A DNA stretch of 64,000 nucleotides, taken from the NCBI GenBank assembly GCA_038231135.1, contig JBBRLX010000004.1, positions 1 to 64,000 on the forward strand. The letters are read 5' to 3'. Shown in pieces: positions 26,448 to 50,355 of this stretch; the first letter of the stretch is position 1; every line of letters starts with the position of its first letter. The translations under genes and the position numbers were made by a program. The DNA is from Candidatus Eiseniibacteriota bacterium. GTDB taxonomy: Bacteria > Eisenbacteria > RBG-16-71-46. The notes beneath the pieces were generated by a model. The model saw only the letters and a program-made list of their open reading frames with translations. It had not been told where the DNA came from and ran no database searches.

Positions 26448-27551
26448 ATGTCACGTTACATACTGTTACTCGCGTCGGTCGCGCTGCTCGGCACGGCTTG
26501 CACACGCACACCGGCCGGGGTGTTGGTGGATACGACCGCGCCCACCGTCATGTCCACGTACCCCACGAGCGGAGCTGTCGGGGTGCCCCGCAACCCGACC
26601 GTCGCTGTGGTCTTCAGTGACGCGATGGCGCCCGCGACCCTGACCGGTTCGTTCGTCATGACCGACGGCGTCACGGTCGTGCCGGCCACGGTGCACTGCG
26701 TCGGCACCCGGGTGACCCTGATTCCAACGGCCCAGCTCGCCTCGAACACGATGTACACCGCCACGGTTTCCACCGCCGCCCAGAACGTGTCGGGCATCGC
26801 GATGGCGGCCACGATGACGTGGAGCTTCACGACCGTTGCGACTTCGGTCACAGGACCCGGGGCAGTCAATCTCCGGACGGCGGCCAACTACGTGATCCTG
26901 GCGAAATCCGCGATCTCGACCACCGGAGCCACCTCGGTTCTCGGCGATATCGCGCTGAGCCCCGCCGCCGCCGCGTTCATCACGGGTTTTGGCCTGACGT
27001 CACCTCCGTCCACGTTCTCCACGTCGTCGCTCGTGACCGGCAAGGTGTGGGCGGCCAATTACGCCCCTCCGACGCCGGCCAACCTGACGACGGCAGTGCT
27101 CGACATGCAGACGGCCTACACCGACGCCGCGGGACGCACGCTTCCGGACTTCACGGAGCTCGGAGCCGGCAATATCAACGGGATGAACCTGGTTCCCGGT
27201 CTCTACAAATGGGGTACAGGAGTCTCCATCCCGATATCGCTCACCCTTACGGGCGGCGTGAACGATGTTTGGATCTTCCAGGTCGGACAGAGTCTCACGG
27301 TAGGCAACGGTGCCATCGTGACCCTGAGTGGAGGCGCCCAGGCCAGCAATGTGTTCTGGCAGGTCGCCGGCCAGGCGACGTTCGGCACGACGGCGCAATT
27401 CAAGGGAATCATTCTGTCCAAGACGCTGATCTCGTTCAACACCCACTCCACGTTGACGGGCCGCGCACTGGCGCAGACCGCGGTGACCCTCAACGCGACC
27501 GCGATCACGAATCCGGCGTCCCTCAGCGCCACCTCGATCAAGAATCCCTAG
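26448..27551 (+). CDS. Lipoprotein with Ig-like (Big_5) domain and DUF3494 ice-binding domain
   Basis: Lipobox LGTAC and DTTAPTV..TYP Ig domain. DUF3494 motifs ILAKSAIS, AVLDMQTAYTDAAGR, LVPGLYKW, VWIFQ, NVFWQVAG and GRALAQTAVTL. Confidence 0.9.
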   Translation: MSRYILLLASVALLGTACTRTPAGVLVDTTAPTVMSTYPTSGAVGVPRNPTVAVVFSDAMAPATLTGSFVMTDGVTVVPATVHCVGTRVTLIPTAQLASNTMYTATVSTAAQNVSGIAMAATMTWSFTTVATSVTGPGAVNLRTAANYVILAKSAISTTGATSVLGDIALSPAAAAFITGFGLTSPPSTFSTSSLVTGKVWAANYAPPTPANLTTAVLDMQTAYTDAAGRTLPDFTELGAGNINGMNLVPGLYKWGTGVSIPISLTLTGGVNDVWIFQVGQSLTVGNGAIVTLSGGAQASNVFWQVAGQATFGTTAQFKGIILSKTLISFNTHSTLTGRALAQTAVTLNATAITNPASLSATSIKNP

Positions 27552-27630: not shown

Positions 27631-29472
27631 TCACCAGAGACGCGTGACCCTCGCCACGCGGGTCGTGCCCCCCGCCGTAACGCGCACGAAATACACGCCG
27701 GGCGCCACCTTTCGTCCGGCATCGCTGCGCCCATCCCACGACAACTCGTGCCTTCCGGCCGCGAACGTGCCCACGACGAGTGTACGAATGCTCCGCCCCG
27801 AGACGTCGGCGACGGACACGCGCGTGCGCGCCGCGATCGGCAGCCCGAACTCCACGCGCACCGTGCCGAACGCCGGGTTGGGAGAGAGTTGCGGGCGTCC
27901 GAAGTCCGCGGTCGCGCCGGGACTGGGGACGCTCGCGAACGGCGTGAAGGGTACGGCGTCGCCACCATCGATCGTGACGGGCCCGGCGCCCGATGCATGC
28001 AGGTCGAGATCCGTGATGTCATCGACGACTGAAATCGTGGAGCCCGGCAAGGGATCCATCGGCTCGAAGTCGATCTCGTTCGCCACATAGCTGGAGTTGG
28101 TGAAGTTGGCGGAGTGCGGCGCCAGGCTGGGCACGATGACCGTTTCACCGGGGCAAGGCGGTGTCCGGCAGTTGAAGATGATCTTCGGACGTCCATCCGC
28201 GCGGAGCGCGATCACCACAACGTACTCGATCATGGACGCGGCGACGGAAACAGGGCCCGCCGGGTCCGCGATATCGGCCACCTGGGCGCCGTCCAGGTAG
28301 AGCACCACGCGATATCCGCTCGCTCCGCTGGACGAAAAGTCGGGAACGAGTGTCGTGCTACTGCTCGATACGGACATCGAAACCGTGCCCAGGTGTTGAT
28401 CCGAAGCGCCTCCGACCACACCATAGGCGTCCCATTGAACCGCCGCGGGTGAGGAGGAGGATGGACCCGCGTTCGAGACGGTGAGCGAGAGCTGCTTTAT
28501 CGGTGGTCTCGTCGTTCCCGTCGATACCAGCGTTGGGCTCTCGCGTAACCGGCTGTCCTGACCCGATGACCCCAGATTGTCGATCGCCATCGAGCTCGAT
28601 AGCCCCCCCGAGACCCATAGCGCATCGCCGATCGCCTCGAGCTCGACCCCCGGGCCATTCGGACAGTTGATGCCGGCGCACGGCGGATCGACCGCCTCGT
28701 CGTCGATCGTGAAAGTCCCAGGTCCGCCGCTCGCGGGCCAGGCGCCATTGATGGCGATGGGACCGACCGTACTCGCGTCGTCACCGCCATCGCGGAAGAA
28801 GCGCAGTCCCCGGCATTCCGTCGTCGTCGAGCCGTCGTGGACCAGCACGGTCGACGAGTAGAACATCTCGATGGACTGGCTCCTCGGGGACCGGAACCGG
28901 ATGCTCGTGAGCGGCGGCCCGATGACCATCTGGGCGCCCGGACGGCCCGGAGACGCCGCGAGGAGCAGCTTCTTCGCAACCGCCAGATCGTACCCGGCGG
29001 TCTTCACTTTCCGTGCGATCACGGCACCCTGGGCGTCGAGCAGCTCGAGCCACGAGGTGGCGGCGTGGGCGCCCGAAAAATCGGGGGACAGGATCTCGCT
29101 GTCATCGGCGAGGCGCGAGACGTGGAGCTTCGCAACCGGAACGCTGGCCCCCGCGACAGTTCCGATGACGACGAAGGTATGCGAGGTCCCGGCCGTGAAT
29201 TCCGCGTCGTAGTTGGGGAACGACACCGCGTAGCCGCGGGCGCCATCCGCGAGCTTGATCTCGACGCCGTCCTGGCCGCTGCTGCCGAGATTGTGGACCG
29301 GGAGTCTGCGAGCCGCGTCGACTCCCACCACGGCGCTGCCGAGCGCCTGGTGGATCAGGCCGTCGTGGATCACGTCGCCGGGTGTGCCCTGCGCGGAGGC
29401 CTCGCGCCAACCGGGCAGTGCAAGGCTGGTCAAAATGCCAATGGTGAAGACGAGACGAAACGCCGAGGGCAT
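27631..29472 (-). CDS. Secreted protein with duplicated NLGSSGQD domain and C-terminal FlgD-like Ig domain
   Basis: Signal peptide and AAGGA RBS. Two internal repeats (LG.A..NLGSSGQD..PDFS). C-terminal PNP..DVSGR.IRTL..WDGRSDAGR.VAPGVYF. Confidence 0.8.
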   Translation of the reverse strand: MPSAFRLVFTIGILTSLALPGWREASAQGTPGDVIHDGLIHQALGSAVVGVDAARRLPVHNLGSSGQDGVEIKLADGARGYAVSFPNYDAEFTAGTSHTFVVIGTVAGASVPVAKLHVSRLADDSEILSPDFSGAHAATSWLELLDAQGAVIARKVKTAGYDLAVAKKLLLAASPGRPGAQMVIGPPLTSIRFRSPRSQSIEMFYSSTVLVHDGSTTTECRGLRFFRDGGDDASTVGPIAINGAWPASGGPGTFTIDDEAVDPPCAGINCPNGPGVELEAIGDALWVSGGLSSSMAIDNLGSSGQDSRLRESPTLVSTGTTRPPIKQLSLTVSNAGPSSSSPAAVQWDAYGVVGGASDQHLGTVSMSVSSSSTTLVPDFSSSGASGYRVVLYLDGAQVADIADPAGPVSVAASMIEYVVVIALRADGRPKIIFNCRTPPCPGETVIVPSLAPHSANFTNSSYVANEIDFEPMDPLPGSTISVVDDITDLDLHASGAGPVTIDGGDAVPFTPFASVPSPGATADFGRPQLSPNPAFGTVRVEFGLPIAARTRVSVADVSGRSIRTLVVGTFAAGRHELSWDGRSDAGRKVAPGVYFVRVTAGGTTRVARVTRLW

Positions 29473-47073: not shown

Positions 47074-50000
47074 CTAGCGGAACAGCACGATCTTCCTGCT
47101 CGACACCCGCTCGCCGGACGCCAGCCGGACGAAGTAGGCGCCTGCCGGCAGTGGGCGACCGCCCTCGCCGCGTCCGTCCCACCGCACGGAACTCATGCCG
47201 GCCTGGACGGTGCCCGAGACGAGCGTCCGCACGCGCTGACCACCGAGCGTGTAGACGGCGAGGTTCGCGTTGCCGGCCTTCGACATCGCGTACGCGATGA
47301 CCATGCCGTTGCGCGCCGGATTGGGTGCGGCCGCATAGATGCCGAAGTCCACACCCTTGAGATTCGGCAGCACGTCGGCATTGGCCCACTGGCACTGCTC
47401 GGCGCACACGTCGATCGTGCCGGGAACTCCGTCACACACGAACGTGACGCTGAAGCAGCACGACAGGTTGGGCGCGCTCGTGGGAATCGCCACGCTGATC
47501 CAGCCCGTCCAGCCCGGCGGGACCGGGTTCGGAGCGGGCGTGAAGTTCTCGTTCAACAGCGTGGCGTTCCAGCCCGGACACAGACCGGCGATCGACCACG
47601 TCGCGCCGGCGGAATTGTTGCAGAACACCAGCGTGTGGATGTGGCTCGAACCGGAACCCGGACGCACCAGCAGCTGGGTGAAGTGGCGACCCACCTGTCC
47701 GGAGCCACCCGGGCCGTTCCAGTTGATGTCGACGTTGCCCGACCAGCTCGTGTCGGGCGGACACGGCGACCCGGGCGCGGGACCGCCACCGGGCAGCCGT
47801 TCCTGAGGCTGGGGCGGCAACTGCGCCAGTGGCACTTCGATGAACACGTCGAAGAAGCTCGACGGCTGGATCGGCGGCACGTCGAACGTCCCGATCGTCC
47901 CCGCGTCGGGCAGGAACACTCCGAACTGCTGGGAGTGCATCGTTCCGCTCACCGGATCCGTGGGGTTATTGGCATCGGGATTCGACCAGCGCATGTGGAA
48001 CCGGATGCTGCTTGTGCCGGCAACCCGCGCCCAGTCCACGACTCCGAGCACCGGCTTCTTCGGGCCGCAGTTGCAGGTGTAGGCGCACACGTCGATCACA
48101 CCCGGAGTGCCGTTGCACGTGAAGACGACCTTGAAGCAGCAGGTCGTGGGAATCGGCGTTCCCGCGGGCGCCTGCACGGCGAGCAGTCCGACCCAGCCCG
48201 GCGGCACCGGATTCGGCGCCGGCGTGAGATCGGTGTTGAGCAGCGTGGCGCTGAACCCCGGGCACAGGCCCGCAATGGTCCACGACGCGCCGACCGCGCT
48301 CTGGCAGTCGGTCTCGATGAACAGGGTGGTGGGTGCGGCACCCGGACACACCGGCATCTCGCCGAAGTGCTTGAATGCCTGCCCCGGCCCGCCGGTCCCG
48401 TTCCAGGTGATGTTGACGTTGCCGTGCCAGTGGTCGGTGACGCACGGGTTCGGCGTGCCCGCCGTGCTGCCGGGCACCGTCAGCGCCGGTTCGGGCGGCA
48501 GCTGCGACCTGTCGATGTCCAGGAACACGTCGAAGAAGCTCGACGGGGCGATCGCCGGAACGCTGAATGGCCCGATCGGGCCGAAGTCCGGCAGGAACAC
48601 GCCGAGCGCCTGCGAATTCATCGTGCCGCTCACGGGTCCCGACGACGAACCGGCGTCCGGGTTCGTCCAATGCTGATGGAAGTGGACCGTCGAGCCGGTG
48701 TTCGTCCAGTCGACCGAGGACAGCGTCGGCGGATGCGAACCGCCGCACTGGCAGGCGGTCGAGCAGATGTTGATCGTGGCCGTGGCGCCGTTGCACTGGA
48801 ACACCACGCCGAAGCAGCAGCTGGCGCCGGAAGGAACGGACCCGGCCGCCGTGATCGAGATGAAGCCCGACCAGCCCACCGGCACGGGATTGGGCGCCGG
48901 CGTAAGGTTCTCGTTCACCAGCGTCACGGTGAAGCCGGGGCACACGCCGACGAGCGACCACGGCATCGGCGACGTGCAGTTGCTGGGCCGGAAGTGGATG
49001 TAGGACGGCGCACCGCCCGCACATGTGAGCAGGTCGGCGTAGTGCCGGTTGACCTGGCCCGACTGCCCGGAGCCCGACCACTGGATGTCGACGTTACCCG
49101 CCCAGTTGGTGTCGGGCGGGCAATCCGACAGCGTCGCCGGACCGCGGTGGCGCATGGACGCGGCGAGCGCCGGGACGCCACCGGACCCGCCGATCAGCTT
49201 CTGCGGCGCCGGGGGGAGCGAGGACAGCGGAACCTCGAAGAACACATCGAAGAAACTGCTGGGCTGGAGCGGGGGCACATTGAACTGGCCGATCTGCCCG
49301 GCATCCGGCAGGAACACGCCGAATTCCTGCGACGACATCGATCCGCTGATCGGCGGCGACATCGCGTCGTTGTCCAGGTTCTGCCAGCGGATGTGGAACT
49401 TGATGTCGGTCGTGCCACTCACGGGCAGCCAGTCGATCGCCGTCGGAGACAACACGCCGACGCAGCCATTGCCGCCGGTCGGGATTTCACCGACCTCGCC
49501 GGCTGTGCGCTGATAGGTACCCGGCCGCGCAAGCGCCGTGCCGCTGCCGAGATTGGACTGACTCGCGGCGGGCGTGTCGGGCAGAAATGCCGATGCGATC
49601 GCTCCCGCGTCGGGACCGTCGATCGAAATCCCGGTCTTGTCCATCTTGGGATTCGAGGGCGAGGTGGCGCCCCAGCTCGCGTAGTCGACGTCACACACGC
49701 GGTCGGACACGCCGTCCCAGCAGAACAACATCACCCACTCGCCATTCGTGGCGCTGGGATTGGTGAACATGCCGCCGGTGACCGGGAAGACGGAGCCGGT
49801 CGCGACGTTGACCATGTCGTCGCTGGTATTGCCGTTCGTATTGGTCATTTCGAGGAAGTACTGGGCGCCGGGCGCGCTGGCGCCGCTCGCGGCGAAGCCG
49901 GTCTTGGTCACGCAGACCACCGCCGTGCGGCCCGGGTTGAGCGAGAGCCCGGCGGGGAACTTGAGCGCGAAGTCGCTGGTGTTCGCCACGGCGAACGGAC

Positions 50001-50355
50001 CGTTGACAACCTTGTAGTAGCCGATGTCATCGCTGAGGTACTTGCCATCCAGCGATACCGGCTTGGTGGTGGGGTTGTAGATCTCGACGAACTCGCTCGA
50101 ATCGGGAGCGCCGCCGGCCGCGGCGAGGCTGGCGCCGCGAACGCCGACTTCGCTGATCAGCAGATGCGTGCCCGAGAGACCACCGGGAACCGTGCCTGGC
50201 GTGGGTAGCGCCGTGGTCCAACCGCCGCCCGTGGCGGCGAAATTCTCACTGGTTTCATTGTGCCCGCCGATCGTACACGTCTGGGGCCACGCCGCTGTGG
50301 CGAACCCCGCGATTCCGATCAGGGCCGTCGTCAGAAACGTACACAACCGCTTCAT
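47074..50355 (-). CDS. Large secreted protein: lamin-tail domain, three Cys-rich repeats, FlgD-like C-terminal domain
   Basis: Signal peptide and AGGAG RBS. LLISEV..EFVEIYNPT (LTD). Three repeats of about 220 aa. C-terminal PNP..GQRVRTL..WDG..AGAYF. Confidence 0.85.
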   Translation of the reverse strand: MKRLCTFLTTALIGIAGFATAAWPQTCTIGGHNETSENFAATGGGWTTALPTPGTVPGGLSGTHLLISEVGVRGASLAAAGGAPDSSEFVEIYNPTTKPVSLDGKYLSDDIGYYKVVNGPFAVANTSDFALKFPAGLSLNPGRTAVVCVTKTGFAASGASAPGAQYFLEMTNTNGNTSDDMVNVATGSVFPVTGGMFTNPSATNGEWVMLFCWDGVSDRVCDVDYASWGATSPSNPKMDKTGISIDGPDAGAIASAFLPDTPAASQSNLGSGTALARPGTYQRTAGEVGEIPTGGNGCVGVLSPTAIDWLPVSGTTDIKFHIRWQNLDNDAMSPPISGSMSSQEFGVFLPDAGQIGQFNVPPLQPSSFFDVFFEVPLSSLPPAPQKLIGGSGGVPALAASMRHRGPATLSDCPPDTNWAGNVDIQWSGSGQSGQVNRHYADLLTCAGGAPSYIHFRPSNCTSPMPWSLVGVCPGFTVTLVNENLTPAPNPVPVGWSGFISITAAGSVPSGASCCFGVVFQCNGATATINICSTACQCGGSHPPTLSSVDWTNTGSTVHFHQHWTNPDAGSSSGPVSGTMNSQALGVFLPDFGPIGPFSVPAIAPSSFFDVFLDIDRSQLPPEPALTVPGSTAGTPNPCVTDHWHGNVNITWNGTGGPGQAFKHFGEMPVCPGAAPTTLFIETDCQSAVGASWTIAGLCPGFSATLLNTDLTPAPNPVPPGWVGLLAVQAPAGTPIPTTCCFKVVFTCNGTPGVIDVCAYTCNCGPKKPVLGVVDWARVAGTSSIRFHMRWSNPDANNPTDPVSGTMHSQQFGVFLPDAGTIGTFDVPPIQPSSFFDVFIEVPLAQLPPQPQERLPGGGPAPGSPCPPDTSWSGNVDINWNGPGGSGQVGRHFTQLLVRPGSGSSHIHTLVFCNNSAGATWSIAGLCPGWNATLLNENFTPAPNPVPPGWTGWISVAIPTSAPNLSCCFSVTFVCDGVPGTIDVCAEQCQWANADVLPNLKGVDFGIYAAAPNPARNGMVIAYAMSKAGNANLAVYTLGGQRVRTLVSGTVQAGMSSVRWDGRGEGGRPLPAGAYFVRLASGERVSSRKIVLFR

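Follow-up and report, generated by a model that had tools for sequence, protein, structure and literature searches.

Diversity-generating retroelements (DGRs) rely on a reverse transcriptase (RT), a template repeat and point hypermutation of one repeat. In the Borrelia vlsE system, variation arises by segmental gene conversion from silent cassettes, which are ~90% identical paralogs in the same genome, and switching is fast (PMC11499132). In a further process, SPDIR, tracts of 3 to ~100 bp give way to fully heterologous DNA, which may come from inside or outside the genome; the events are rare, need microhomology, involve no dedicated locus and give products that are highly variable in sequence (10.1101/2023.11.22.568220). 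Homologous segments of 20–80 residues, termed bridging themes, are common to unrelated folds, the most ancient domains included (PMC8136508).

The window analyzed here, that is, the whole stretch of 64,000 nucleotides from a Candidatus Eiseniibacteriota bacterium (contig JBBRLX010000004.1), contains a gene whose product, P0001, belongs to a family of scaffold proteins that carry short pieces (patches) matching parts of other proteins. Like DGR targets, the family concentrates its variation at fixed sites of a ligand-binding-type fold; unlike DGRs, it shows no RT and no template repeat, and whole foreign peptides take the place of point hypermutation. With vlsE it shares the swapping of short segments into variable regions of a surface protein, whereas here the donors, which are not found in the genome, are unrelated proteins and the swaps are slow. 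The tract size (at the protein level) and the rarity of the patches fit SPDIR; in contrast, the patches are strictly in frame and in sense, and come recurrently from a few exported-protein families. They also differ from bridging themes in that pieces of 8–45 residues tile one donor, recur in many lineages and are swapped between 87% identical proteins. Segment 1 of P0001 and many patches of the family match parts of the type VI secretion system (T6SS) tube protein Hcp/TssD (PF05638, TIGR03344; PDB 1Y12), although P0001 itself has no PF05638 match and another predicted fold, and the pieces are out of order.

No description of such peptide patching was found in a literature search that took in neither subscription papers nor bioRxiv supplements; patching is a real feature of the family as a whole and, within the reach of that search, has not been described. 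Whichever mechanism operates, short in-frame pieces from all parts of an unrelated protein (Hcp) turn up in one family of folded scaffolds. Protein variation reached in this way differs from that due to domain shuffling, DGRs or cassette conversion, and the origin of short segments common to unrelated folds becomes testable in living lineages.

The P0001 gene and the predicted fold of its product

P0001 (613 aa) is encoded by an ORF at 27631..29472 on the reverse strand, to which all P0001 coordinates below refer, and the gene is identical in contigs from two runs of one study, from which the sequence may itself derive. The original prediction had described it as a duplicated scaffold with two anchor motifs and four short foreign-looking segments; the ORF, both anchors and all four segments were found at the places given, three of the ranges being one codon too long. 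Residues 1–27 (29392..29472) form a likely signal peptide, judged by eye, with residue 27 invariant in 10 aligned homologs, and the product is likely exported. At the other end, residues 536–601 (27670..27867) match FlgD-Ig and T9SS-like sorting tails (PF13860, FlgD_ig, 49.9 bits, E 3e-13; TIGR04183, 28.5 bits with a cut-off of 23); a literature search on FlgD-Ig/T9SS-like tails in Eisenbacteria found nothing.

Two all-beta units were predicted by AlphaFold2 (mean pLDDT 85.8, pTM 0.84): unit 1, a jelly-roll sandwich (residues 33–270, 28663..29376; ConA-like matches with Z 9–10), and unit 2, a second copy of the same fold (residues 271–511, 27940..28662; Z ~8, with a weak sequence match to unit 1). 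ConA-like jelly rolls were the best structural matches (Z 9.4–10.0, rmsd 3.7–4.2, 166–180 residues aligned, identity 7–8%), and the top one (Z 10.0, rmsd 4.0, 166 residues) has a modest Z that implies no function. In the model each unit is a predicted ConA-like jelly-roll beta-sandwich, the fold found in 3ZXJ (GH43 C-terminal), 5LY8 (phage CBM), 8WOK (PL7) and 1UMZ (GH16), although the P0001 units have no Pfam match and the likeness is one of predicted fold only. The top 50 fold matches of the model were mostly jelly rolls and Hcp was not listed among them. Foldseek returned weak galectin and laminin-G rows only for the two-unit model, and the ESM Atlas gave no usable match.

The first anchor motif (residues 61–68, 29269..29292) is the family's most conserved word, and the second (residues 299–306, 28555..28578) was placed by homolog alignment. 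Since the two units share a single weak sequence stretch of 32 residues, nearly no P0001 residue has a sequence counterpart in the other copy, and the lack of one, which had been taken to single out the four segments, does not distinguish them. In the model, segments 3 and 4 form strands, segment 1 forms a hairpin, and segment 2 consists of a strand with a low-confidence loop; in our reading of the model, each segment's strand or hairpin has a predicted positional partner in the other unit.

P0001 is flanked by an ice-binding-like gene and a cold-shock gene. The former, convergent with P0001 (window 26448–27551, forward strand), encodes an ice-binding-like (PF11999) protein with a Big_5 domain.

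Origin of the four segments

Throughout the family, varied motifs occupy the same two sites (slots), one just after the anchor and one ~95–130 residues past it. Each likeness was tested by scoring the best 11-residue window of P0001 with the full-length profile of the donor; 1,528 pieces taken from proteins of this genome served as the null.

Segment 1 (residues 156–169, 28966..29007) lies in slot B of unit 1 and matches the C-terminal end found in a single Hcp clade, of which it appears to be a worn, inherited copy. Against a profile of 40 Hcp from this clade it reached 22.6 bits at the Hcp C-terminus, a score equalled by 1/1,528 control pieces; the clade had itself been fetched by a segment-1-like pattern, and a second Hcp set fetched without that pattern gave no match (418/1,528 controls). 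A set of 120 close relatives of one Eisenbacteria Hcp was rejected as the source, as these have another C-terminus and gave no match. With the same clade profile, the homologs P0003, P0005 and P0049 scored 32–33 bits and are thus closer to Hcp than segment 1. Identity of segment 1 across 9 homologs is 28%, compared to 38% for the gene overall; on this comparison segment 1 is wearing away in P0001, which argues against strong selection on it there. A search of metagenome contigs with the Hcp-like tail pattern gave 66 matches, comprising 44 ends of real Hcp genes, 19 from one unrelated family and 3 others. The pattern matched 9 times in 401 genomes of the phylum of G206, a planctomycete recipient, and twice in viral contigs, and by eye none of these matches ends an Hcp gene.

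Segment 2 (residues 309–319, 28516..28548; slot A of unit 2) is inherited as well. Its match is the core of an exported domain, as yet without a name, from PVC bacteria and Eisenbacteria; it scored 28.9 bits against this home domain, with 1/1,528 control pieces scoring as high. Its pattern was met in 64 stretches of GTDB genomes, 14 of which are the core of this one conserved exported domain (L060, L061, L064, L068, L072, L073, L077-L079, L081, L082, L089, L100 and L115), 2 lie in FG-GAP lipoproteins and ~40 represent an antisense coincidence. The latter loci (L052-L111, mostly Planctomycetota) share one conserved gene, presumably RNase E/G, whose antisense frame reads near the segment-2 motif. 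The home domain often comes with PEP-CTERM-like tails and in tandem repeats, and has nearly no NCBIfam coverage. Residues 310–313 are identical in all four closest homologs, and residues 310–314 show 76% identity across 9 homologs compared to 38% overall. Segment 2 had been thought to replace the strand that follows the second anchor; the homologs P0008 and P0009, however, keep that strand ahead of segment 2, so that P0001 has instead lost approximately four residues after the anchor. Segments 1 and 2 are both common to homologs at 34–47% identity.

Segment 3 (residues 328–338, 28459..28491) is DUF11-like and unique to P0001. It scored 22.3 bits against DUF11 (residues 330–340), a value reached by 16/1,528 controls, half of them from the genome's giant DUF11-repeat protein, and residues 330–340 score 2.5 bits under the ortholog profile. 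The likeness extends over 11 residues only, and PF01345 (DUF11, a ~114-residue domain) has no match in P0001. Within the family, DUF11 matches occur at 2.2 per 100,000 residues, which is below background, and segment 3 is the only case in 186 proteins; P0005 carries a second segment-2 motif at the corresponding slot. Among 70 DUF11 repeats of relatives, the best DNA match to segment 3 was 22/33 bases. Segment 3 is a possible patch, or perhaps arose by ordinary drift in the variable slots. Elsewhere in the genome, a 4,862-codon open frame (G000:C11 57785-68227, reverse strand) holds more than 25 DUF11 repeats.

Segment 4 (residues 413–423, 28204..28236; slot B of unit 2) looks Flp-like by eye, but scored 15.1 bits against 54 Flp/TadE-like pilins, a level that is not significant (73/1,528 controls as high), and it is a beta-strand in the model rather than the N-terminal helix of Flp/Fap pilins (PF04964). 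Segment 4 is probably a product of ordinary drift in the variable slots.

Of the likenesses originally proposed, those of segments 1 and 2 therefore held up, that of segment 3 to DUF11 is borderline and that of segment 4 to Flp fell away. The same division applies to the idea that pieces of 10–15 residues were patched in, which the family evidence supports for segments 1 and 2, leaves undecided for segment 3 and does not support for segment 4. A loose pattern run over 5 genomes was dropped as too noisy.

A stretch of poor codon adaptation, residues 284–383 (28324..28623), spans segments 2 and 3. Its codon adaptation index of 0.357 lies at the 0.7th percentile among 100-codon windows, and its four-fold sites hold 19% A compared to 4% in the background, with T also in excess. 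Strand-biased deamination was rejected as a general cause of such stretches, given that the heavily patched genes at L070 and L102 have normal codon use.

Pieces of unrelated proteins across the scaffold family

The scaffold family has no name and comprises 998 clusters at E 0.001 or better with a profile built from 8 homologs. Its unit of ~220–240 residues is repeated up to many times, and homologs with a named source come from Candidatus Eisenbacteria, Phycisphaerales and other Planctomycetota. The family is present in 9/206 genomes of the window's phylum, 8 of which are relatives from the same family as the genome of the window (G000, a 93% complete metagenome assembly). The analysis covered 186 proteins, namely 47 first homologs and the new ones among 150 listed of the 998 clusters.

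These proteins were scanned with the Hcp profile at a threshold of 22 bits, after low-complexity windows had been dropped and with the genome's own proteins as the control. We obtained 31 matches in 179,651 family residues compared to 1 in 743,577 control residues, an enrichment of ~130-fold, and the pieces tile Hcp columns 4–165. The 31 matches are non-independent, as six represent one inherited piece and two, which may be chance, lie in the scaffold's own conserved strand. P0156 holds a 45-residue Hcp piece (PF05638, E 4e-9) and P0098 two VgrG stretches (TIGR03361, E 1.9e-7), together with a piece that we take to be EF-Tu-like; pieces in P0021, P0130, L017 and L276 are presumably kinase-like. 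The order of the Hcp pieces is not colinear with the scaffold (rho -0.31, n 33), and the Hcp tail motif was found at two offsets in the family. For the segment-2 motif we counted 21 copies, spread over 16 proteins and several distinct offsets, compared to a shuffled mean of 0.22.

Differences between relatives follow the slots. The same slot of the two repeats of P0049 holds different motifs, and two block swaps with Hcp-like pieces separate P0037 from P0039, which is 87% identical to it. Among 30 pairs of cluster mates, 0/30 showed a short motif swap, and three pairs share one longer replaced stretch. In a tree of 284 unit cores (FastTree, 84 residues), the motifs of segments 1 and 2 underwent at least 4 changes each, a figure that, given the short alignment, is reliable only as 'several'. 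Conservation in homologs, which had been expected if the segments were ordinary parts of the fold, gave a divided picture: the closest homologs keep segments 1 and 2, whereas 104/186 family proteins carry none of the 23 listed motif patterns.

The same motif kinds are swapped slot by slot in an unrelated scaffold, a densely patched FG-GAP beta-propeller lipoprotein family (L272-L277) found in 4/29 genomes of one planctomycete family (G206, G207, G1018 and G1021); the G206 gene alone contains 6 copies of the segment-2 motif, and the family also carries Hcp-like and presumably kinase-like pieces, which makes it well suited as a second system. Taken together, sequence comparison has shown that pieces covering Hcp from end to end, along with pieces of VgrG, stand in the same few slots, in frame and in sense, and differ between relatives. 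By the length, number and frame of the pieces, copying itself is shown at the level of sequence; the enrichment, the pieces of up to 45 residues and the matches to curated models cannot be reconciled with point mutation.

The genome of P0001 holds a single paralog, P0009 (35–36% identical; locus L018, G000:C19:7497-9233, reverse strand), whose unit 1 has another motif in slot B, rich in aromatic residues and also present in the Haloferula protein P0127 and in P0177. No donor of this motif was found, and 10 tail-tube (PF06841) sequences gave 0 matches at 22 bits; DNA of P0127-like genes was not found in 401 sampled genomes of the class of G610. On the same contig, an ORF of 1,578 aa starting at 28850 (G000:C19, forward strand) has a 22-residue stretch in common with a recurrent family motif (P0120, P0044), and may be a donor or another recipient. 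The window also encodes a 1,091-aa protein (47080-50352, reverse strand) with a lamin-tail domain, a FlgD-Ig tail and three repeats, in each of which the home domain of segment 2 is represented by its second conserved motif. The four-fold sites of its gene appear unusually A/T-rich, and it may be a second patch recipient in the window.

Proposed route of capture and retention of the pieces

Our preferred reading, held tentatively and with confidence just short of even, is that rare events of short-patch recombination brought in short in-frame pieces of unrelated proteins, from donors that the genome no longer has, and that selection on the peptide then retained them. In each case a DNA event would have replaced 25–130 bases of the scaffold gene, at an evolutionary pace, with foreign or since-lost genes as the source. 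The pieces may have been kept because they are displayed to the partners of injection-system proteins and other surface proteins, as mimics or as binding baits; this is the least certain step, and a role in display or as a decoy is a guess prompted by the kinds of proteins that act as donors. A bolder version, which we regard as somewhat unlikely, is that a process of peptide capture, so far undescribed, operates in Eisenbacteria, Planctomycetota and Verrucomicrobiota. Pieces of 25–130 bases from other organisms' injection-machine and surface genes would be placed, in frame and in sense, at fixed slots of lectin-like and beta-propeller scaffolds that are exported, giving a heritable display library of foreign epitopes (decoys, mimics or baits).

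Donors had originally been sought within the same genome, by gene conversion, and this idea was not borne out. For the four segments, the best DNA matches in G000 were 29/45, 30/45, 24/33 and 26/36, no better than 22 control windows (22–27/33), and neither Hcp, Flp nor the RT domain RVT_1 was found in this 93% complete genome. Hcp was likewise not found in G206, G207, G1018, G1021, G130 and G133, all incomplete MAGs and among them four heavily patched planctomycete genomes; it is present in 56/206 phylum genomes, including the recipients G083, G089 and G092, whose Hcp genes end differently. The home domain of segment 2 was absent in 4/4 recipient genomes tested, which are incomplete (positive control E 5e-93). 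Motif copies share codons equally within genomes (0.60) and between them (0.61), which gives no hint that copying within a gene took place recently; the peptide is kept while codons differ, residues 310–314 being well conserved and codon sharing unrelated to genome. A protein-level proxy for microhomology, in which 28 patches were compared with the native slot, gave a mean percentile of 0.54 (p 0.06), so that their likeness to it is weak. At the DNA level, neither a junction nor a donor–recipient pair with matching DNA was seen.

All 28 matches of Hcp-like patches are in the frame and strand of Hcp itself; the five other frames gave 0, where ~68 would be expected by the arithmetic of the frame test if patching were frame-blind; the power of this test was 0.47–0.81 with held-out genes of the same Hcp clade, and would be lower for distant donors. 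SPDIR would be expected to act on either strand and in any donor frame before selection, and selection could hide the other products. The strict frame and strand could also be compatible with an RNA template combined with ordinary purifying selection. According to this alternative, which is unlikely but survives best, patches would be copied from abundant mRNAs by reverse transcription or RNA-templated repair, fixing the strand, with out-of-frame pieces removed by purifying selection and no display role. The in-register antisense frame, which is 97% open and yet gave 0 matches at a power of 0.49, is in line with such a route, as are the RVT_1 genes of G133, G083 and G206 and the fact that Hcp is a very abundant transcript. 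However, RVT_1 is absent from G000 and G089, none was found beside family genes at 11 loci, and most recipients today are without Hcp. Further, within the units, no abundant housekeeping protein emerged as a prominent donor (38 matches compared to 18–32 with shuffled sequences), and VgrG, a minor component, is a donor.

That the same motifs recur in unrelated scaffolds and phyla would be explained if a dedicated mobile reservoir, a gene or array of pieces since lost in G000, held a fixed cassette vocabulary that gene conversion passed on to many exported proteins. We consider this quite improbable: a six-frame scan of G000 found no reservoir ORF, two vocabulary patterns gave 0 matches in viral contigs, one motif is confined to three family genes among 206 phylum genomes, and Hcp is sampled over its whole length rather than as a few fixed cassettes. 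The neighbours of family genes are also unconserved (11 loci), the only mobile-element match being one IS91-type zinc-binding domain.

Convergence or chance among beta-strand-rich exported proteins accounts for segment 4 and possibly for segment 3, with DUF11 matches below background in the family. It is also in keeping with the Pfam search, in which 60 tiles of P0001 and 21 homolog windows gave no Hcp, Flp or DUF11 match, with one control glycosyltransferase-like protein that scores level with segment 1, and with the 19/66 tail-pattern matches from one unrelated family. As an explanation of the likenesses as a whole it is very improbable, and for the family it is already refuted by the enrichment, length and curated-model matches of the Hcp and VgrG pieces.

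Still less credible is an active diversifying system, DGR-like or of the antigenic-variation type, altering P0001 in the present population. The poor codon adaptation and excess of A in residues 284–383 might be read in its favour, but no RT was found, no DGR-type template repeat in G000 rose above control windows, and there are no silent homologous cassettes in this genome beside the single paralog. No variant of P0001 was seen in the contigs of the two runs, in which rare variants are dropped, and the cluster-mate pairs showed no short motif swap. The ongoing diversification first envisaged is not supported: because no donor DNA, Hcp or RVT_1 was found in this genome and no variant in the two contig sets, and segments 1 and 2 are inherited, patching by the preferred route of short-patch recombination would be old and slow, and no active cassette system operates. 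An assembly artefact, conceivable in that the genome is a metagenome assembly, can be dismissed, since single contigs from two runs are identical over this stretch, homologs of other sources also carry segments 1 and 2, and a heavily patched member, P0127, is encoded on a 5.68 Mb contig of Haloferula helveola.

As Haloferula helveola is a named species, donors, junctions and function are directly open to study there. For annotation, short Hcp or VgrG matches in such proteins are no mark of secretion systems. P0127 (WP_338688877.1) is itself annotated as 'histone H1 protein', a likely misannotation that apparently stems from a 25-residue Hc1 match under the Pfam cut-off.
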